This document shows positions 6,444 to 25,305 of a stretch of DNA of 64,000 nt, piece after piece (the first letter of the stretch is position 1; the number at the start of each line of letters is the position of its first letter). The translations under genes were made by a program, and so were the position numbers. The stretch is from Burkholderiales bacterium (lineage in GTDB: Bacteria; Pseudomonadota; Gammaproteobacteria; Burkholderiales; Usitatibacteraceae): positions 11,385-75,384 of the forward strand of contig JBBREI010000001.1 in NCBI GenBank assembly GCA_038203035.1, written 5' to 3'. Under the pieces are notes generated by a model. It saw nothing but the letters and a program-made list of their open reading frames with translations, had not been told where the DNA came from and ran no database searches.

Positions 6444-8193
<1,750 letters not shown>

Positions 8194-8200
8194 CGCTCGC

Positions 8201-10522
8201 CTAGAAGATCTGGTTCCTGACTTCCTCCGGCGGACGGGCTGCGTCACGCGCGAAGGACCCTTCGTCACCCACCGGGGGCTGCGACTCCTGGTAGAAAAAC
8301 TCCGTGGTCTTGCTGGCGCCGCCTGGCTCGCGCAATCCGGTGGCCGGATTGATGTTGACCGCAACAATGCCCGACGGTGGGGCGAATTCGGTTTCCGGGA
8401 CACCCTTCAGGACCTTCGCGGCGTAATACATCCAGATCGGCAATGCCGCCGCGCCGCCGGTCTCGTTTGTGCCCAGGTTCGTGGGTGTATCGAAGCCGAT
8501 CCACGCCACCGCGGCCAGGCGGCCCATGTAGCCGGTGAACCAGGCATCGATGTGGTCATTGGTGGTCCCGGTCTTGCCCGCCAGGTCCTGGCGTCCGAGT
8601 GACATGGCCTTGGCCGCAGTCCCGTAGCGAACCACATCGCGCATCATTGTCGTCATGAGGAAGGCGTTGCGTTCATCGAGCACACGCTCGGCGTCGACCC
8701 CCGCGGTTTCGGGTTTCGCGGCGTACAGGGTCTGCCCGCGATTGTCCTCGACACGCGATATGAACCAGGGCTTGACCCGGTAGCCCCCGTTGGCGAAGAC
8801 CGCGTAGGCCGATGCCATCTGCAGCGGCGTGGCCGAGCCGGCGCCCAGCGCCATCGTGAGGTAGGCCGGGTGCATCTTGGGATCGAAGCCGAAGCGCTGG
8901 ATGTAGTCCTGGGCATAGTGCGGTCCGATCGCCTGCAGCAGGCGGATGGAAACCATGTTCTTGGACTTGGCCAGCGCCGTGCGCAGCCGCATGGGGCCTT
9001 CGTATTTGGCGTCGTAGTTCTTCGGCTCCCAGAGCTGGCCGCCCGTTTTCGCCGCCTCGATGACAAACGGCGCGTCGTTCAGCACCGTGGCCGGGGTGAA
9101 TCCCTTTTCCAGAGCGGCGGAATAAATGAAGGGCTTGAAGCTCGAGCCGGGCTGGCGCCACGCCTGGGTCGCATGGTTGAACTTGTTGGCGCTGAAATCG
9201 AACCCGCCGGAAAGGCTGAGGATCGCGCCATTCGCGGGGTCGATCGCGACCAGCGCGGCCTCGACTCTGGGAAGCTGCGCGATGCTCCAGCCGCCCTTTT
9301 CCCCAGGCAGCAGGCGAATGATCGACCCGCGCCGGATCGCGCGGTCCGGGTTGCGCTCCACCAGGGCGCGGGCGACGAACTTCAGGCCATCGCCCGTCAC
9401 CGAAACTTCCTCACCGCGCCGCAGAGCCGCCTTGACCTCCCTGGCGCTCGACTCGAGGACCACGGCAGGCACCAAGTCGCCCAGGACCTCGCGATCCTGG
9501 AGAGCCTCGTCCACCGCCTCGTCGACCTCGCCGGCCCCCGACGGCAGGTTCACCTGTCCCTCGGGCCCGCGGTAACCATGGCGGCGGTCGTATTCGAAAA
9601 TGCCCTGGCGCAACCCGCTGTTGGACGCTTCCTGGTCCTTGCGCCGAACGGTGGTGTAGACCCTCAGGCCGCTCACGTACGCCGGGTCGCCGTATTGCTC
9701 GACAATCGCCGCGCGCGCCATTTCGGCCACGTAATCGGCGCGGAATGCGAAGGTTTCGCTCCGGTTGGGGTTGAGCCGCAACGGTTCGGCGACCGCCTTC
9801 TTATATAGGTCGGGCGCCAGCCAGCCGACCTCCTGCATGCGGCGCAACACGTATTGCTGGCGCTCCTGCGCGCGCTTGGCGTTCACGAACGGGTTCTGGC
9901 GGGAGGGCGCCTGCGGCAAGCCCGCAAGCATCGCCGCTTCTGCGGGCGTCAGGTCGGCCAGGTTCTTGCCGAAGTACACGTTTGCAGCGGATTGGAACCC
10001 ATATGCGCGCTGGCCCAGGAAGATCTGGTTGATATAAAGCTCGAGGATCTGGTCCTTGCTCAGATTCGCCTCGATCTTGAATGCGAGCAGGACTTCCGAA
10101 AGCTTGCGGGCGAGGGTCTTTTCGCGCGTCAGGAAAAACGTCCGGGCGACCTGCATCGTGATGGTGCTGGCGCCCTCGCGACGACCCTGCAGGTTGGCCA
10201 CCGCCGCGCGGGCGACACCGGCGTAGTCCACCCCGCCGTGCTGGTAGAAGCGATCATCCTCCGCCGCGAGGATGGCGGCCTTCATCACCTGGGGCACGTC
10301 CTGGATCTTGACGACGGCGCGCTTCTCTTCGCCGAATTCGCCGATCAGCTCACCCTCGGCACTGTAGATCCGCAGCGGAATCTTGGGCCGGTAGTCAGTA
10401 AGGACTTCCAGGCTCGGCAGATTCGGCCACAACAGGACCACAGTCAGCGCAGCCACCCCTGCGGCCACGAGGACCAGAGAGACGGCTATGAGGCCGGGAT
10501 AGAACCACCATCGGGAGGTCAT
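8201..10522 (-). CDS. mrcA: Penicillin-binding protein 1A
   Basis: N-terminal TM; transglycosylase EDDRFYQH and GASTITMQVAR; transpeptidase QPGSSFKPF, SKN and KTGTTN. Confidence 0.96.
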   Translation of the reverse strand: MTSRWWFYPGLIAVSLVLVAAGVAALTVVLLWPNLPSLEVLTDYRPKIPLRIYSAEGELIGEFGEEKRAVVKIQDVPQVMKAAILAAEDDRFYQHGGVDYAGVARAAVANLQGRREGASTITMQVARTFFLTREKTLARKLSEVLLAFKIEANLSKDQILELYINQIFLGQRAYGFQSAANVYFGKNLADLTPAEAAMLAGLPQAPSRQNPFVNAKRAQERQQYVLRRMQEVGWLAPDLYKKAVAEPLRLNPNRSETFAFRADYVAEMARAAIVEQYGDPAYVSGLRVYTTVRRKDQEASNSGLRQGIFEYDRRHGYRGPEGQVNLPSGAGEVDEAVDEALQDREVLGDLVPAVVLESSAREVKAALRRGEEVSVTGDGLKFVARALVERNPDRAIRRGSIIRLLPGEKGGWSIAQLPRVEAALVAIDPANGAILSLSGGFDFSANKFNHATQAWRQPGSSFKPFIYSAALEKGFTPATVLNDAPFVIEAAKTGGQLWEPKNYDAKYEGPMRLRTALAKSKNMVSIRLLQAIGPHYAQDYIQRFGFDPKMHPAYLTMALGAGSATPLQMASAYAVFANGGYRVKPWFISRVEDNRGQTLYAAKPETAGVDAERVLDERNAFLMTTMMRDVVRYGTAAKAMSLGRQDLAGKTGTTNDHIDAWFTGYMGRLAAVAWIGFDTPTNLGTNETGGAAALPIWMYYAAKVLKGVPETEFAPPSGIVAVNINPATGLREPGGASKTTEFFYQESQPPVGDEGSFARDAARPPEEVRNQIF

Positions 10523-17469: not shown

Positions 17470-17798
17470 GTGTCCGGCGTTTCCGCCGGCTTGTCCAGCC
17501 GCCGCAGGAACACCGTCATTTCCTTCGCCGCCTGCTTGTCGCCCTTGCGTCCGGCCGCCTCGATGCCATTGCGATATGCATTGCGCGCATCGTCGACGGC
17601 GCCGGTCTCGGCGAGTGCACGCCCCAGGAGCTTCCAGGCGGCGGAGTAGTCCGGGTCCTGCACCACGGCGGCGCGCAGGTGCGTCGCGGCCCGGGCGGCT
17701 TCCCCCCCATTGAGGTAACTCAGGCCCAGGCTGAAGCGCAGCAACGCCGTGTCCTTGCCCGCTGCCAGCAGGGCCTCGAATCGTTCGGCGGGATTCAT
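17466..17798 (-). CDS. Small tetratricopeptide-repeat protein (110 aa)
   Basis: ATG 17798; LRFSLG..YL, A...[15 protein letters not shown]...[12 protein letters not shown], a TPR pattern. Confidence 0.8.
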
Positions 17799-17850
17799 CG
17801 TCGCAGGTCCTTCACGGTATGATCGTCGCACAACACTGGGAGAGACAACC

Positions 17851-19437
17851 ATGATGCTGCGCATGTTCAAGCTTGCCGCGGCCGCCGCCGCAATCGCCGC
17901 CGCCCCGATGACCGCCCACGCCCAGAAGGAACGCGAGGTCAACATCGGCCTGCAGGCGGCGCTCACCTCGATCGACCCGCACTATCACAACCTTTCGCCC
18001 AACAACGGCATGCTGCAGCACATCTTCGAGCCGTTGATCAGGCGCGACGCGAACATGAAATTCGTGCCGGCGCTGGCGGTTTCGTGGAAAGCGATCGACG
18101 ACCTCACGTGGGAGTTCAAGCTGCGCAAGGGCGTCAGGTTCCACGACGGCACGCCCTTCAGCGCAGAGGACGTGGTGGCAACATACAAGCGCGTGCCCAA
18201 CGTGCCCAACAGCCCCTCGTCGTTCGCGACTTTCACCAAGCCGATCGTCGACGTGAAGGTGGTGGACCCGTTGACCATCATCTTCAAGACCGCCTCGCCG
18301 CACGTGCTGCTGCCGAGCGACCTCGCCGCAGTCTACATCCTTCCCAAGCCGGTGGCGGAGAAGGCGACGACGGATGATTTCAACTCCGGCAAGGCCGCCA
18401 TCGGCACTGGCCCCTACAAGTTCGCCGAATACATTCCCAACCAGCGGGTCGTGCTCAAGGCCAACTACGGCTACTGGGGCGGCGAGGAGCCCTGGGACAA
18501 GGTCGTCTTCAAAATCCTGTCGAACCCGGCCGCGCGGGTGGCGGCGCTGCTCTCGGGCGACGTCCAGATGATCGAGACGGTGCCCACCTCGGACATCGCC
18601 AGGCTCGCCTCGGACAAGAGATACGCGCTCTCCGACAAGGTCTCCAACCGCGTGATCTACGTCCACCTGAACCAGCGCAACGACAAGACCGTTCCCTTCG
18701 TCACCGCCAGGGACGGCAAGCCGCTCGACAAGAACCCGTTCAAGGACGCGCGCGTGCGCAAGGCGCTCTCCATGGCCATCAACCGCGATGCCATCGCCGA
18801 CCGCGTCATGGAGAAGAAGGCGGTCCCGGCGGCGCAGCTGCTGGCGGATTCCTTCTACGGCACCAGCAAGAAGCTCAAGCCGGTGAAGTATGACCCGGAA
18901 GGCGCGAAGAAGCTGCTGGCCGAGGCCGGTTATCCGAACGGCTTCACGCTGACCATTCATGGCCCCAACAACCGCTACATCAACGACGACAAGGTGGCGC
19001 AGGCGATCGCTCAGTTCTATTCGCGCGCCGGCATCGAGGCGAAGGTGGAGACGATGCCCTCGAGCGTGTATTTCACCCGCGCCACCAAGGGCGAATTCGG
19101 CTACATGCTGCTGGGCTGGGGGACGGAATCGGGCGAGCAGGGCTCAAGCCTGCGCTCGCTGCTGGCCACGCACGATCCGGCCAAGGGCATGGGCGTCAAC
19201 AATCGCGGGCGCTATTCCAATGCCGTGTTCGACAAGCAGGTCTCGGACGCGCTCGTGGTCGTCGACGACAGGAAGCGCGAGCCCCTGATCCAGCTGGCCG
19301 CCGAGACCGCGATGAACGACACCGCGCTCATTCCCGTGCATTTCGAGGTCAGCACCTGGGCCACGCTCAAGGGATTCAAATACAACGCGAGGGTCGACCA
19401 ATACACGCTGGCGATGGAGCTGAAGCCCGCGAAATGA
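17851..19437 (+). CDS. Peptide/nickel-type ABC transporter substrate-binding protein (family 5)
   Basis: Signal peptide ending AHA; SIDPHY, WEFKLRKGVRFHDG, IGTGPYKF; SD-like GGAGAG upstream. Confidence 0.93.
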   Translation: MMLRMFKLAAAAAAIAAAPMTAHAQKEREVNIGLQAALTSIDPHYHNLSPNNGMLQHIFEPLIRRDANMKFVPALAVSWKAIDDLTWEFKLRKGVRFHDGTPFSAEDVVATYKRVPNVPNSPSSFATFTKPIVDVKVVDPLTIIFKTASPHVLLPSDLAAVYILPKPVAEKATTDDFNSGKAAIGTGPYKFAEYIPNQRVVLKANYGYWGGEEPWDKVVFKILSNPAARVAALLSGDVQMIETVPTSDIARLASDKRYALSDKVSNRVIYVHLNQRNDKTVPFVTARDGKPLDKNPFKDARVRKALSMAINRDAIADRVMEKKAVPAAQLLADSFYGTSKKLKPVKYDPEGAKKLLAEAGYPNGFTLTIHGPNNRYINDDKVAQAIAQFYSRAGIEAKVETMPSSVYFTRATKGEFGYMLLGWGTESGEQGSSLRSLLATHDPAKGMGVNNRGRYSNAVFDKQVSDALVVVDDRKREPLIQLAAETAMNDTALIPVHFEVSTWATLKGFKYNARVDQYTLAMELKPAK

Positions 19438-19455
19438 CGCGGTAGGCACCGCCCG

Positions 19456-19480
19456 AAAGCCCCGCTGCGGCGGGGTTTTT
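19456..19480 (+). terminator. Intercistronic stem-loop/terminator after the SBP gene
   Basis: AAAGCCCCGC-TGCG-GCGGGG followed by TTTTT. Confidence 0.75.
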
Positions 19481-19519
19481 CGCTCTCGGGAGGCCGCTCA
19501 CCCTGTGCGACAATCCACC

Positions 19520-20503
19520 ATGCTCGCCTTCGCCATCCGCCGGTTCGGACAGAGCCTTTTCGTGCTCGTGGTGATGTCGTTCCTGGTGTTCCTCGGCGTT
19601 TATGCAATCGGCAACCCGATCGAGCTGCTGGTCAATCCGCAGGCCGATGAGGCGGAGCGGGTCCGCGCCACGGCGGCGTTGGGCCTCGACAAGCCGATGC
19701 TGGAGCAATACGCCACCTTCCTGGTGCGCGGCGTCCAGGGAGACCTTGGTCGCTCGTTCGTTTTCAACGTGCCGGCGATCCAGCTGATCCTCGCGAAGCT
19801 GCCCGCCACGCTCGAGCTCGCCCTGGCGGCCATGGTCATCGCGATCGCGCTCGGTATCCCCCTGGGGCTCATCGCCGGGCTGCGCCCGGATTCCTTCGTC
19901 GGCCGCACCATCATGGCCGGCTCCATCCTCGGCTTCAGCCTGCCGACCTTCTGGGTGGGCCTGGTGCTCATCATGCTGTTCTCCGTTCACCTCGGCTGGT
20001 TGCCGCCGAACGGCCGCGGGCAGACCGTGATGCTGCTGGGCATTCCGGTGAGCTTCCTCACCTGGGACGGCCTGCAGCACCTGGCGATGCCCGCGCTCAA
20101 CCTCGCGCTCTTCAAACTCTCGTTGCTGATCCGCCTCACGCGCGCGAGCACGCGCGAGGCCGTGCTCCAGGACTACGTGAAGTTCGCACGCGCCAAGGGG
20201 CTGGGCCCGGGCCGCGTGATCGGCGTGCACGTGCTGAAGAACATCCTGATCCCGATCGTCACCGTGATTGGCCTTGAGCTCGGCTCCGTCATCGCGTTCG
20301 CGATCATCACGGAATCGATCTTCGCCTGGCCCGGCACCGGCAAGCTGCTGATCGATTCGATCAACCAGCTCGACCGGCCGGTGATCGTGGCCTACCTGCT
20401 GGTGATTGTCGCCATCTTCATCACCATCAACTTCGTGGTCGACGTGCTCTATTCGGTGCTCGATCCGCGCGTGCGCCTCGGCGCGACGGCCGGGGCCCAC
20501 TGA
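19520..20503 (+). CDS. ABC transporter permease (DppB/OppB family)
   Basis: LGRSF, LPATLEL, SLPTFW, QDYVKFARAKGL (EAA-like loop), ITESIFAWPGTG. Confidence 0.93.
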   Translation: MLAFAIRRFGQSLFVLVVMSFLVFLGVYAIGNPIELLVNPQADEAERVRATAALGLDKPMLEQYATFLVRGVQGDLGRSFVFNVPAIQLILAKLPATLELALAAMVIAIALGIPLGLIAGLRPDSFVGRTIMAGSILGFSLPTFWVGLVLIMLFSVHLGWLPPNGRGQTVMLLGIPVSFLTWDGLQHLAMPALNLALFKLSLLIRLTRASTREAVLQDYVKFARAKGLGPGRVIGVHVLKNILIPIVTVIGLELGSVIAFAIITESIFAWPGTGKLLIDSINQLDRPVIVAYLLVIVAIFITINFVVDVLYSVLDPRVRLGATAGAH

Positions 20504-20504
20504 A

Positions 20505-21431
20505 GTGGGCATCATCACCGGCGACGCGCCCACGCGACCGCAGCCCGCGCCGGCCGCCGAGTCGCCTTGGCGGCGGTTCGCCTCCGAATTCGCCGAAAGC
20601 CGGCTCGCGCTGCTCGGGCTCGCGATGCTGGTGGTGATTGTCGGGCTGGCCCTCGCCGCGCCGCTGGTTTCGCCTCAGAATCCGTACGACCTGGCGCAGC
20701 TCGACATCATGGACTCGAAGTTGCCCCCCGGCGAACATTCGGCGGCCACCGGCAAGTCCTACCTGCTGGGCACCGACGACCAGGGCCGCGACATGTTGTC
20801 GGGGATCTTCTACGGCATTCGCATCTCGCTTTTCGTGGGCGTGACCAGCACCGTCATCGCGCTGAGCCTGGGCCTCGCGCTCGGACTGGCCGCGGCCTAC
20901 TTCGGCGGGCGGATCGACGCCCTCATCATGCGCATCGCCGACATCCAGCTTTCGTTCCCGGCGATCCTGATCGCGCTGGTGCTGCTCGCGGTGCTGGGCC
21001 AGGGGGTCGACAAGATCATCGTGGCCCTTGTCACCGTGCAGTGGGCGTATTACGCGCGCACCGTACGATCCTCGGCGCTGGTCGAGCGGCAGAAGGAATA
21101 CATGGAAGCGGCCCAGGTGCTGGCGCTGTCGCGCCCGCGCATCGTGTTTCGCCACCTCCTTCCCAATTGCCTGCCGCCACTCATTGTTGTCGCAACCGTG
21201 CAGGTCGCGCACGCGATCCAGCTCGAAGCCGCGCTTTCCTTCCTGGGCCTCGGCCTGCCCATCACCGAGCCCTCGATCGGGCTGCTGATCTCCAACGGCT
21301 TCCAGTACCTGCTGTCCGGCAAGTACTGGATCAGCTTCTACCCCGGGCTCGCGCTGTTGCTCACCATCGTTGCGATCAACCTCGTCGCCGACCAGTTGCG
21401 CGACGTGCTCAACCCGAGGCTGAAGAAGTGA
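20505..21431 (+). CDS. ABC transporter permease (DppC/OppC family)
   Basis: GTG start; LLGTDDQGRD, RISLFVG, EYMEAAQVLA, RHLLPN, LSFLGLG. Confidence 0.93.
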   Translation: MGIITGDAPTRPQPAPAAESPWRRFASEFAESRLALLGLAMLVVIVGLALAAPLVSPQNPYDLAQLDIMDSKLPPGEHSAATGKSYLLGTDDQGRDMLSGIFYGIRISLFVGVTSTVIALSLGLALGLAAAYFGGRIDALIMRIADIQLSFPAILIALVLLAVLGQGVDKIIVALVTVQWAYYARTVRSSALVERQKEYMEAAQVLALSRPRIVFRHLLPNCLPPLIVVATVQVAHAIQLEAALSFLGLGLPITEPSIGLLISNGFQYLLSGKYWISFYPGLALLLTIVAINLVADQLRDVLNPRLKK

Positions 21432-22402
21432 CCGATGCCGGCGCCCCCCTGCTCGAAGTCGAGGGGCTGCGCATGCATTTTTTCACCAAGGCGGGGGTCG
21501 TCAAGGCGGTCGACGAGGTGAGCTTGCGCCTGGAGCGCGGAAGGATACTCGGCATCGTGGGCGAATCGGGATCGGGCAAGTCGATGACCGGCTACTCGAT
21601 CCTGGGGCTGGTGGACGCGCCGGGGCGAATCGTCGCCGGGCGAATCGCGCTCAACGGCCAGGACCTCACCCGCCTGGACGAGGCGGCCTGGCGCAAGTTG
21701 CGCGGCAACCGCATCGCAATGATTTTCCAGGACCCGATGATGACGCTCAACCCGGTCCTGAGAATCGATACCCAGATGGTCGAGGCGGTGCTCGCCCACC
21801 ACGCCATGTCGAAGGAGAGCGCGCTTGCGCGATGCCGCGAGGCCCTCACGCAAGTCGGCATCGCCTCTCCCGACGAACGCCTGCGCGCCTATCCGCACCA
21901 GTTCTCCGGCGGGATGCGCCAGCGTGTCGCGATAGCAATCGCCCTGCTCAACAAGCCGGACCTCATCATCGCCGACGAGCCCACGACGGCGCTCGACGTG
22001 ACCATCCAGGGGCAGATCCTGTTCGAGATGCAGAAGCTCTGCCGCGAAAGCGGCACGGGCCTGATCTGGATCACACATGACCTGTCGGTCATCTCCGGCC
22101 TGGCCGACGACGTGTGCGTGATGTACGCGGGGCGCATCGTCGAATCCGGCACCGTGGACGATGTGCTGGAACATCCCATGCATCCGTACACGCGTGGCCT
22201 GCTCGATTCGGTGCCGAGCCGCAATGTGCCCGGGCGCCCGCTGGCACAGATCCCGGGCATGACGCCTTCCCTGCTGCACCTGGGTGCCGCTTGTGCGTTT
22301 CGCGAACGGTGCCCGCGCGCGGTGGAGCCCTGCTCGGTCGCCCCTGCCCTGCGAGCGATCGGCGCCGCGCGCAGCCTGCGATGTGTCAACCCGATCACAT
22401 GA
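21428..22402 (+). CDS. ABC transporter ATP-binding protein (DppD family)
   Basis: [41 protein letters not shown]-terminal Cys cluster. Confidence 0.94.
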
Positions 22403-23412
22403 CGACCGCCGCCACCCCGTTGCTCGAGATCCGCGGCGTCTCCAAACGCTTCGTGAAGGGGATAGACCTGGCCGGGCGGATCGCGCGCCGGCTTGGCGCG
22501 CGCGTTTCCGAAACGTCGGTTCATGCGCTCGACCGGGTGGACCTCGCGATCCGCGAGGGAGAGGTGGTTGGCCTGGTCGGCGAATCGGGATGCGGGAAGT
22601 CGACGCTGGGAAGGATCGTGTCGCGCATCCTCGCGCCCACCGAGGGCGAGCGCTTCTGGAAGGGACGCCCGTACGCGCAGTACGAGGCACCCGGCGATCG
22701 CGCGGAGCGGCTTGCGGTGCAGATGATCTTCCAGGACCCGTATGCGTCTCTCAACCCGCGCATGCGCATCCTCGACATCATCGGTGAAGCGCCGGTCGTG
22801 CACGGGCTCGTGAATGCGGCTCAGCGCCGGGACTACGTCGCGGACATGTTGCAGCGTGTCGGCATGGATGCGAGCCTGATGCGCCGCTTCCCCCACCAGT
22901 TTTCGGGAGGACAGCGCAGCCGCATCGGCATCGCGCGCGCGTTGGCGGTCAAGCCGCGCTTCCTGGTTTGCGACGAGGCGGTTGCGGCCCTGGACGTGTC
23001 GATCCAGGCGCAGGTCCTGAACCTGTTCGTGCGCCTGCGCGAAGAGTTCGCGCTCACCTACCTCTTCATCAGCCACGACCTGGGGGTGATCCGCCACGTG
23101 TCCGATCGCGTGGTGGTGATGTACCTTGGGCGCGTGGTCGAGTCCGCACCAACCAGCGAGATCTACGCGCAGCCGAACCACCCCTACACCCAGGCGCTTG
23201 TGGCCGAGGTGCCGCGAGTTGATGCCAAGCGCCGCCAATACATCCCGGTGAAGGGGGAAATCCCGTCGCCGCTCGCCCCGCCACCGGGCTGCCATTTCCA
23301 TCCGCGTTGCCCGAGGGCCTTTGCGCGCTGCCGCGAGGACGCTCCCGCGCTGCGCGAGATCGGGCCCGGGCACCTCTCCGCCTGCCACCTCAACGACATT
23401 GGAAGCCGATGA
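22399..23412 (+). CDS. ABC transporter ATP-binding protein (DppF family)
   Basis: [47 protein letters not shown]. Confidence 0.94.
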
Positions 23413-24356
23413 ACGACCAACCCTTCGAACTGCATCCGCCGCGGGCAGGCCATTCGCCGCTGGTCCTGGACTCGCCGCACAGCGGGACGCACTACCCCGG
23501 TGATTTTGGCGCGTCCGTCGCGCTCGAGCAACTCCGGCAGGCCGAGGACAGTTATGTCGATGAGCTCTATGCCGTCGGCCCCGACCTCGGCGCCACACTC
23601 ATCGCGGCGCGCTTCCCGCGCAGCTACATCGATCCCAACCGATCGCTGCTCGACATCGATGCGTCGCTGCTCGCCACGCCGTGGCCGGGTCCCGCGGTCC
23701 CCGGCGCCAAGACGCAGAAGGGCATCGGCCTCATCTGGCGCGTGCTCGATACCGGCGAAGCGATCTATTCGCGCAAACTTTCCGTCGACGAGGTGAAGCG
23801 GCGAATCGTTCGTTACCACCAACCGTACCAGCGCGCGGTCAAGGATGCCCTCGACGCCGTGCACGACCACTTCGGCGGTGTCTGGCACCTGAACCTGCAT
23901 TCGATGCCCGCGGTCAGCAGCGCCGTCTCCGAGGAAGGTCCCGGAAAGCCCCGCGCCGATTTCGTGCTCGGGGACCGCGACGGGACGACCTGCGAGCCTG
24001 AATTCACCGCGAAGGTTGCCGAGGCACTGCGCGCGATGGGTTACGACGTCAAGGTGAACGATCCTTACAAGGGAGTCGAGCTGGTGCGGGCCTTCTCCGA
24101 CCCGAAGGCGCGGCGTCACAGCCTTCAGATCGAGGTCAACCGCAAGCTCTACATGGACGAGCGCACCCGGGGGAAAAACGCCGGTTTCGACGAGCTTAAG
24201 GGCAACCTGGGCAAGCTCCTCGTGGCCGTTTCCGAATACGCCGCCGCGCGCTGCGAAGAGGTCGCGGGCGGGCACCACCATCATCACCACGGCCACGATC
24301 ACCACCATCATGGGCACGACCATCACCACGACCACGACCACAAACACGACCACTGA
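23409..24356 (+). CDS. N-formylglutamate amidohydrolase (FGase) family protein with a His-rich C-terminal tail
   Basis: [44 protein letters not shown]; ends [27 protein letters not shown]. Confidence 0.9.
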
Positions 24357-24357
24357 C

Positions 24358-25305
24358 ATGTCCATCGCCGTCGAGCTGCAAGCCCCCGACATCACTGCCC
24401 ACCGCGCGTCGAACACCGGGACCGAGTTCGTCCACACCTTCGACAGCGGCATCGCGGGGCCACACGCCATGGTCAACGCGTTGACCCATGGAAACGAGAT
24501 CTGCGGCGCGATTGTCGTCGATCGCCTGCTGCGCCAGGGCCTGCGCCCCGCGCGCGGCAAGCTCACTCTCTCGTTTGCAAACGTCGAGGCGTTCTCCCGC
24601 TTCGATCCGCGCAACCCGTACGCAACACGATTCGTCGACGAGGATTTCAACCGCGTGTGGAATCCCGCCACCCTCGACGGCAAGGGCTCGACGGGGGAGC
24701 TGCGCCGCGCCCGCGAGCTGCGCCCGTTCGTCGACCAGGCCGAATACCTGCTCGACATCCATTCGATGCTTGAACCCAGCCCGCCCGTGATGATCTGCGG
24801 CCCGCTCGAGAAGGGCATCCGGTTCGCGTTCGAAGTCGGCGTGCCGCGCGATATCGTGAGTGACACGGGACACGCCAACGGCACGCGCATGCGCGATTAC
24901 GGCGGGTTCGGCGATCCCGCGAGCACCCGCAACGCGCTGCTGGTCGAATGCGGGCAACACTGGGAACGCGCCGCGGAACTCGTGGCCTGGCAGACCGCGT
25001 GGCGGTTCCTCGACCGCCTCGGCATCGTCGATCCGCAACTCGCCGCGCGCGAGATCGGACAGGCGGTGACACCGCAGCGGCTGATCCGGGTGACGGACGC
25101 GGTGGTCGCCAGCTCGCCGGCGTTTCGCTTCGTCCGGCCGTTCGCGGGACTCGAGGTGGTCGAGCGCGAAGGCGAGGTGATCGCCTGGGACGGCGACCAA
25201 CCGGTGAAGGCTCCCTACGCCAATTGCGTGCTGGTGATGCCCGTGCCCAACAACGTGAAGGCGGGGCTTACCGCGGTGCGCCTGGGACGGATCGAGGCGC
25301 GCTAG
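24358..25305 (+). CDS. Succinylglutamate desuccinylase/aspartoacylase (AstE/AspA, M14-like) zinc hydrolase
   Basis: HGNE (HxxE Zn ligands), DFNR and LLDIHS motifs; ATG 1 bp after the upstream stop. Confidence 0.88.
   Translation: MSIAVELQAPDITAHRASNTGTEFVHTFDSGIAGPHAMVNALTHGNEICGAIVVDRLLRQGLRPARGKLTLSFANVEAFSRFDPRNPYATRFVDEDFNRVWNPATLDGKGSTGELRRARELRPFVDQAEYLLDIHSMLEPSPPVMICGPLEKGIRFAFEVGVPRDIVSDTGHANGTRMRDYGGFGDPASTRNALLVECGQHWERAAELVAWQTAWRFLDRLGIVDPQLAAREIGQAVTPQRLIRVTDAVVASSPAFRFVRPFAGLEVVEREGEVIAWDGDQPVKAPYANCVLVMPVPNNVKAGLTAVRLGRIEAR

Follow-up and report, generated by a model that had tools for sequence, protein, structure and literature searches.

We analysed a window of 64,000 nt from the genome of a soil betaproteobacterium, a Burkholderiales bacterium of the family Usitatibacteraceae (GenBank assembly GCA_038203035.1, contig JBBREI010000001.1, positions 11,385 to 75,384 of the forward strand). 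Positions 17851–25305 of the window carry seven co-oriented genes on the plus strand, all with high third-position GC, which encode in order a family-5 substrate-binding protein (SBP), permeases B and C and ATPases D and F of an ATP-binding cassette (ABC) importer, an enzyme of the N-formylglutamate amidohydrolase (FGase) family and a remote member of the AstE/AspA superfamily (Table 1). Every importer domain scored above its Pfam cut-off (the family-5 SBP, two BPD_transp_1 permeases and two oligo_HPY ATPases), and by its domain content the importer belongs to the Dpp/Opp/Nik (PepT-type) ABC class. The preliminary description of this DNA had given the same gene order and had reported overlaps or 1-bp gaps from the first permease gene onwards, and both were confirmed by the domain assignments and by reading the junctions. 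Permease C starts with GTG after a gap of 1 bp behind the stop codon of permease B, the permease C/ATPase D junction is a GTGA overlap, the ATPase D/ATPase F and ATPase F/FGase-like junctions are ATGA overlaps, and a single base separates the FGase-like gene from the ATG of the AstE-like gene. The sole real intergenic gap in the operon, 67–82 nt depending on the start of permease B, lies between the SBP and permease B genes.

Table 1. Features of the operon and of its upstream border, in positions of the window
Feature	Position	Strand	Remarks
Small tetratricopeptide repeat (TPR) protein gene	17471-17812	-	Divergent from the operon; read from the sequence
GGTATNATC element, candidate -10 box	17822-17834	+	Conserved upstream of the first gene of the operon
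SBP, family 5 (Dpp/Opp/Nik type)	17851-19437	+	PF00496 SBP_bac_5, 315 bits; Sec signal peptide
GC-rich hairpin followed by UUUUU	19445-19482	+	Between the SBP and permease B genes
Permease B (DppB/NikB-like)	19505 (GTG) or 19520 (ATG) to 20503	+	PF00528 and PF19300
Permease C (DppC/OppC-like)	20505-21431	+	PF00528 and OppC_N
ATPase D (DppD/OppD-like)	21428-22402	+	ABC_tran and oligo_HPY
ATPase F (DppF/OppF-like)	22399-23412	+	ABC_tran and oligo_HPY
FGase-family zinc amidohydrolase, HutG paralogue	23409-24356	+	PF05013, 230 bits
AstE/AspA-superfamily (M14-like) zinc amidohydrolase, remote	24358-25305	+	PF24827 AstE_AspA_cat, 38.9 bits (cut-off 25)

Two start codons called for a choice. The permease B orthologue in the related locus L008 has 327 residues, in agreement with the start at 19520. 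For the AstE-like gene, an open reading frame of 331 codons begins at 24310, and we regard this longer version as a probable artefact, since the first 16 codons fall on the histidine-tail repeat of the preceding gene, taken in another frame; relatives of the protein mostly have 315–316 residues, and 24358 is the probable start.

The FGase-like protein is, on sequence grounds, a paralogue of HutG and not HutG itself, because it falls below the cut-off of the HutG equivalog TIGR02017 (101.5 bits versus 278.75) and because the real hut cluster of the genome lies on another contig. Its match to PF05013 covered 219 of the 219 profile positions, far above the gathering score of 28.9. The second FGase-family gene of the genome, on contig C60, adjoins the urocanase gene hutU and reached 331.4 bits with TIGR02017, which makes it the true hutG; the preliminary description had named as refuting its reading the case that the enzyme in the window is the genome's only HutG, and this case does not hold. 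The C60 cluster (L006:2192-8655) is complete, with hutF (formimidoylglutamate deiminase), hutI, hutG and hutU, that is, the five-step histidine pathway that runs via N-formylglutamate. The FGase-like protein and HutG share the Pfam family, the fold and a set of core residues (H24, D47, R71, D75, N77, R78, H164, H237 and E242, from 46 orthologues of the former), but the two proteins of this genome are only 28% identical, the FGase-like gene has no hut neighbours, and its subfamily has extra invariant residues, charged ones among them, that are not invariant in HutG (D21, D82, D84, W92, K101, R122, H160, D189 and R190, in the same 46 orthologues). These subfamily-specific residues would point to a different, larger binding pocket. 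The closest structure, PDB 2Q7S (303 bits), is a structural-genomics entry without an assigned substrate.

The AstE-like protein is likewise, by sequence comparison, a member of the AstE/AspA superfamily in a separate subfamily that contains no characterised member. It scored 24.1 bits with the AstE equivalog (cut-off 170) and 28.7 bits with the aspartoacylase equivalog NF002601 (cut-off 180), and the match to aspartoacylase (ASPA) in the PDB reached only E = 0.05, over residues 41–124. Its AlphaFold2 model, built on an alignment of 61 sequences (mean predicted local distance difference test score 96.7), has the two-domain fold common to AstE, DoeB/EutE, ASPA, aminoacylase 3 and CphZ, which Foldseek returned with template modelling (TM) scores of 0.56–0.68, at most 20% identity and a probability of 1.00. 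Structures have been solved for, among other relatives, the beta-Asp-Arg hydrolase CphZ, to which the protein is 14–16% identical (TM score 0.56–0.60), and the N-acetyl-diaminobutyrate deacetylase DoeB/EutE (6TWM; 16–18% identity). Cyanophycinase was not found in the genome, which is 90% complete, and no doe or eut genes of ectoine metabolism adjoin the AstE-like gene in the flanks that we read. The catalytic positions of these enzymes, namely the zinc ligands HxxE...H, the Arg, the Asn-Arg pair and the catalytic Glu, are all present: H44, E47, R91, N98-R99, H135 and E197 are invariant or nearly so among the 61 family members, and in a HMMER alignment with rat aspartoacylase the HGNE motifs of the two proteins coincide, R91 matches the Arg of TRY, and N98-R99 match the Asn-Arg of LNR. 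In aspartoacylase these positions bind the zinc, supply the catalytic Arg and clamp the alpha-carboxylate of the substrate, and with them conserved the AstE-like protein reads as an active-looking zinc amidase that would release an amino acid with a free carboxylate. The family is large (273 clusters at 50% identity, E < 1e-30), with thousands of relatives in soil and freshwater metagenomes that their sources name just 'M14 family metallopeptidase' (NCBI) or 'predicted deacylase'.

Family names alone would suggest that the two enzymes are HutG and AstE proper, serving histidine and arginine catabolism. Against this stand equivalog scores far below the cut-offs for both proteins, the hut cluster elsewhere in the genome, the low identity to the genome's own HutG and the failure to find AstA (PF04958) in the 90%-complete assembly, and we regard this identity as effectively refuted. 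In agreement with the preliminary description, no hut or ast genes lie nearby. Upstream of the operon are pilMNOPQ-aroK-aroB and the small divergent TPR gene; downstream, the convergent ntrX-ntrY, with which the operon meets stop-to-stop at ntrX, is followed by DUF4390 and fmt.

The conservation of the gene set was determined with an AstE-like profile, which gathered 80 loci onto which the proteins of the window were mapped. An orthologous transporter (44–86% identity) and an FGase-like gene both lay beside the AstE-like gene in 31 loci, the transporter only in 10 and the FGase-like gene only in 7; 22 loci of at least 17 kb had neither, and 11 were too short for judgement (the classes sum to 81, as the window itself is counted in the first). 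Burkholderiales loci showed the co-linear arrangement of the window, while in many Alphaproteobacteria the FGase-like gene, ATPases, permeases and SBP follow one another on one strand with the AstE-like gene divergent on the other, and the full set was also present in metagenome-assembled genomes (MAGs) of Nitrospiraceae (L037) and Acidiferrobacterales (L041). The seven-gene arrangement is not due to chance, because the gene set recurs among related loci, and a linkage that survives rearrangement is the strongest computational sign of a shared function. The preliminary description had held that its reading would fail if the hydrolases were not conserved together with the transporter, and the mapping shows that they are, over large phylogenetic distances and in varied gene orders.

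By source names, the closest AstE-like relatives belong to Usitatibacter. The AstE-like gene is present in 22 of 24 further genomes from the genus, and at least 13 of these 22, all of which were tested, have an SBP orthologue on the same contig at a distance of about 6 kb; the tallies include one unpublished genome (G001), on which the conclusion does not depend. An unbiased check from the FGase side, made in 250 genomes from the order, gave orthologues at 49% identity or more in 17 of them; the AstE-like gene is the immediate same-strand neighbour in 9 of the 17, and in 9 of the 10 with E <= 1e-92. More distant FGase-like orthologues adjoin LysR regulators and TctC-type receptors, and a draw of 300 genomes across the class found an FGase-like orthologue nowhere but in the window's own genome, which shows that the group is patchy. 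The unlinked AstE-like proteins come from Cupriavidus, Ralstonia, Paraburkholderia and relatives, where their neighbours are TctC, major facilitator superfamily proteins or a set of omega-transaminase, succinate-semialdehyde dehydrogenase (SSADH), tartrate dehydrogenase and PotD-like genes. Of these 22 proteins, 18 fell in a separate clade of a quick tree with SH-aLRT support only, and given this split the transporter-linked proteins are a coherent group, the unlinked ones probably having a different specificity, for small carboxylates. A census of 71 other neighbour proteins at the transporter-linked loci gave M81/MlrC peptidases (10/71) and M20 peptidases (4/71) as the most frequent families and found no recurrent D-amino-acid enzymes, ligases or regulators; AbrB-type membrane proteins were also common beside these loci.

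The two hydrolase genes also occur together without the transporter. In a congener whose genome is 99% complete (G002, locus L011), the pair alone occupies the same aroB-TPR/ntrX site, with the FGase-like gene first and the element GGTATCAT directly upstream of it, and the loci L022, L026, L035 and L057 likewise have the pair with no transporter within 10 kb. The hydrolase pair is thus the tightest unit of the module. Such loci, together with the lack of a local regulator in the operon, would suit a housekeeping role for the two hydrolases, whose substrate would be a metabolite of the cell's own cytoplasm, such as an N-acyl or gamma-glutamyl amino acid that arises in turnover or repair; the ABC genes would then encode an independent peptide importer that happens to use the same promoter in some lineages. 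We consider this explanation unlikely: in 41 of the 80 loci the orthologous transporter accompanies at least one of the hydrolases, the divergent arrangements in distant classes are hard to explain by a shared promoter alone, and combinations of the transporter with the FGase-like gene only (L096) or with the AstE-like gene only (L090) occur as well.

The FGase-like protein of the window ends in a histidine-rich tail (24273–24353), with 19 His among its last 27 residues. This tail is restricted to the clade L012–L029, which comprises Burkholderiales-type relatives, Usitatibacter and MAGs that share the ntrX synteny, and within it the tail varies in length (7–26 His in the last 45 residues) and mostly includes one conserved Cys (GSHAC or HHDCGH). 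Together with the SBP, whose best NCBIfam equivalog was NikA (171 bits, cut-off 393), and with high-ranking matches to nickel and opine-metal permease families, the tail might suggest import of a metal chelate, with the hydrolases destroying the small organic ligand of nickel, cobalt or zinc and the tail taking up the metal. All nickel and opine models were, however, far below their cut-offs, and GsiB (167 bits, cut-off 594), DppA (147, 1005) and OppA (141, 947) scored about as well as NikA, with CntA at 124 bits (cut-off 800). Moreover, none of the other 25 FGase-like proteins of AstE-centred loci that were read to the C-terminus has the tail, and it is kept in the transporter-less loci read in the same way (L022 and L026), and no Zur- or NikR-type site was seen in the short upstream region, inspected by eye and not by a motif search. 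The metal-chelate alternative, which the preliminary description had left standing, consequently finds little support here and we hold it to be very improbable.

We consider it fairly probable that the operon serves catabolism by the uptake and cleavage of a small peptide-like compound of a non-standard kind, and the best reading of its candidate linkage is gamma-Glu, beta-Asp or N-acyl. In such a pathway the family-5 SBP would capture the compound in the periplasm and the Dpp/Opp-type transporter would import it, whereupon the two zinc amidohydrolases, both with carboxypeptidase-related folds, would cut in turn in the cytoplasm. Each would free an amino acid with a free alpha-carboxylate from a gamma-glutamyl, beta-aspartyl or N-acyl partner of the kind that ordinary peptidases handle poorly, so that the compound would be trimmed stepwise from its C-terminus to free amino acids, probably including Glu or Asp. 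Which way the transporter works, which enzyme cuts first and to what chemical class the substrate belongs are inferred. All characterised activities that we found in the two families share one geometry: an acyl group (formyl, succinyl, acetyl, gamma-glutamyl or beta-aspartyl) is removed from the alpha-amine of an amino acid whose carboxylate is free. With such enzymes behind a peptide-type importer, and M81 and M20 partners in other lineages, stepwise trimming fits best. Uptake and hydrolysis of an unusual acylated or iso-linked amino acid or peptide, as opposed to histidine or arginine catabolism, had been put forward in the preliminary description, and it stands as the best reading, the genome having another HutG and the hydrolases being conserved with the transporter. 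The same description had called the unit self-contained, which is not strictly so, as the pair stands without the transporter in some congeners and M81 and M20 peptidases are added elsewhere.

That description had also spoken of the 'deblocking' of N-formyl or N-acyl groups, which is one option only, for members of the FGase family (PF05013) have also been assigned, on bioinformatic and transcriptional grounds, as gamma-glutamyl-glycine amidohydrolases (SCO1615 and a Chromohalobacter salexigens enzyme; PMC9397018), acting on an amide other than N-formyl-Glu. The paper places this step in a gamma-glutamylation route for ethanolamine and gives it as proposed in C. salexigens. Compared by description only, SCO1615-type enzymes are a precedent for the window's FGase-like protein as a putative gamma-Glu-X hydrolase; their context is a glutamine synthetase-like ligase with dehydrogenases, whereas in the window it is an ABC peptide importer. 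The FGase fold also lies close to that of PghP and PghL, two hydrolases of poly-gamma-glutamate (PMC6506827).

One specific version of the uptake-and-cleavage reading is the scavenging of peptidoglycan stem peptides such as L-Ala-gamma-D-Glu-meso-diaminopimelate (mDAP), in which one enzyme would cut gamma-D-Glu-mDAP, as MpaA does, and the other would free D-Glu from L-Ala. MpaA is an M14 enzyme, and both hydrolases of the window have M14-related, carboxypeptidase-like folds. A supply of stem peptides both from outside and from turnover of the cell's own wall would account for the survival of the pair where the pump is missing, and the clustering of up to four different amidases in other lineages would suit a peptide with several unusual bonds. 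Against this version, the SBP was nearer to DppA than to MppA in the PDB (146 versus 100 bits), and recurrent D-amino-acid enzymes are missing from the neighbour census. The genome already holds Mpl (680 bits), two LdcA-type S66 genes and classic M14 genes, an inventory of peptidoglycan recycling that by itself neither supports nor excludes murein peptides. We judge this version to be quite unlikely. A broader proposal, which we advance tentatively and as a possibility with the odds against it, is that the FGase-like and AstE-like enzymes form a dedicated two-step 'iso-peptidase' route that feeds abundant soil and freshwater Proteobacteria on a single widespread class of protease-resistant small peptides; its substrates would be gamma-glutamyl peptides, beta-aspartyl peptides or the peptidoglycan stem peptides of microbial necromass, trimmed sequentially from the C-terminus.

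Several observations weigh against the uptake-and-cleavage reading. The SBP reached the cut-off of none of the characterised equivalogs to which it was compared (NikA, GsiB, DppA, OppA and CntA), and its closest solved structure, 5U4O (217 bits), is an entry without an assigned substrate. Escherichia coli DppA binds the free N-terminal amine of its peptide with an Asp, D408 of the mature protein. At the aligned position, in a loop where the alignment is uncertain, the window has Glu and the 31 orthologues have Gly, Glu or Asp, and three residues further on, in the same uncertain loop, the SBP group has an invariant Glu. With the anchor Asp apparently unconserved, the SBP may not bind a normal peptide with a free amino group; this fits a blocked or iso-linked ligand and proves nothing. 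The substrate of the hydrolases need not enter via this pump, as the pair persists where the transporter is missing. Co-transcription of the seven genes is likewise presumed, the gene overlaps being its one basis. Finally, we found in the literature no study of this gene cluster and no experiment on either hydrolase subfamily, its useful yield being the precedents at the level of the families, and a protein-atlas search gave back the family name only.

The regulatory signals of the operon were found by reading the sequence, folding it and comparing loci. About 20 nt upstream of the SBP start lies CACGGTATGATCG, and the pattern GGTAT(C/T/G)AT(C/G/T) likewise precedes the first gene of five related loci (L008, L013, L014, L016 and L017), with a weaker form, CTATTATC, in L029; in the same comparison no -10-like element was found upstream of the first gene in L021. 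From this conservation, the element GGTATNATC is probably the -10 box of the operon promoter. A scan with consensus promoters and terminators returned no full sigma-70 site at the operon and likewise missed the hairpin behind the SBP gene. Only 38 bp separate the operon from the TPR gene, so that the -35 region would fall within the TPR coding sequence; the TPR gene, which recurs at this place with the same 109 codons in L008 and L011, is not a part of the pathway, and the promoter region of the operon abuts or overlaps its start. The hairpin behind the SBP gene has a minimum free energy of -26.6 kcal/mol over 50 nt (z = -2.56). Such hairpins are the usual means of producing a binding protein in excess over the membrane parts of its transporter, and this one is likely to act as a partial terminator that would set the ratio of SBP to membrane components.

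Further observations concern paralogues in this genome and related loci. The genome has about four Dpp/Opp-type systems (contigs C1, C6, C72 and C120) and orphan SBPs. A second, unrelated AstE/AspA-family gene, 24% identical to that of the window, lies on contig C51 (L007:4743-5726), where it adjoins a radical SAM gene of the PA0069 family, with a family-5 SBP paralogue about 1.3 kb off (about 6999–8459). The genome's own M81/MlrC-type peptidase (C219:3694-4551, 311 bits) is on a short contig and is cut by the contig end. One congener has its AstE-like gene broken into three frame-shifted pieces (G012:C2:296834-297771), and the SBP gene of a second congener is split in two and contains an in-frame TGA (G004:C2:339910-341441, locus L012), these being either decaying copies or long-read assembly errors. 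In Paraburkholderia and Caballeronia, an AstE-like paralogue closes a co-oriented row (L085:4287-12566 in Caballeronia; also L051, L052 and L081) of genes for a 2-hydroxyacid dehydrogenase, an omega-aminotransferase, an AsnC regulator, a tartrate dehydrogenase and an SSADH-like aldehyde dehydrogenase, then a PotD-like SBP, a set suggestive of an uncharacterised pathway that handles an acylated omega-amino compound.

Operons that couple an importer to a hydrolase for an unusual bond are known from E. coli: ddpX-ddpABCDF for D-Ala-D-Ala, iaaA-gsiABCD for isoaspartyl peptides and glutathione, and mppA with mpaA for the murein tripeptide. These systems combine, like the operon in the window, a family-5 SBP, two permeases and two oligo_HPY ATPases with cytoplasmic enzymes; theirs are for bonds that general peptidases leave uncut, as those of the window would be. 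Unlike them, the operon in the window has two hydrolases, an FGase-like and an AstE/AspA-like one, translationally coupled to the last ATPase gene.

As a type, the system is nothing unusual: an ABC importer specific for its substrate, accompanied by the hydrolases of its catabolism; since the architecture itself is known, only the pair of orphan enzyme subfamilies and the ligand are new. Automatic annotation would read the pair as 'N-formylglutamate amidohydrolase' and 'succinylglutamate desuccinylase / M14 metallopeptidase', wrongly implying histidine and arginine catabolism, for a three-part module that is kept across classes. Once identified, the ligand would tell what the two orphan enzyme subfamilies and the orphan transporter do, and would probably reveal a nitrogen or carbon source that is contested by common soil bacteria. 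If the 'iso-peptidase' route were true, it would provide the first functions for two large orphan enzyme subfamilies and for an orphan branch of the family-5 SBPs.

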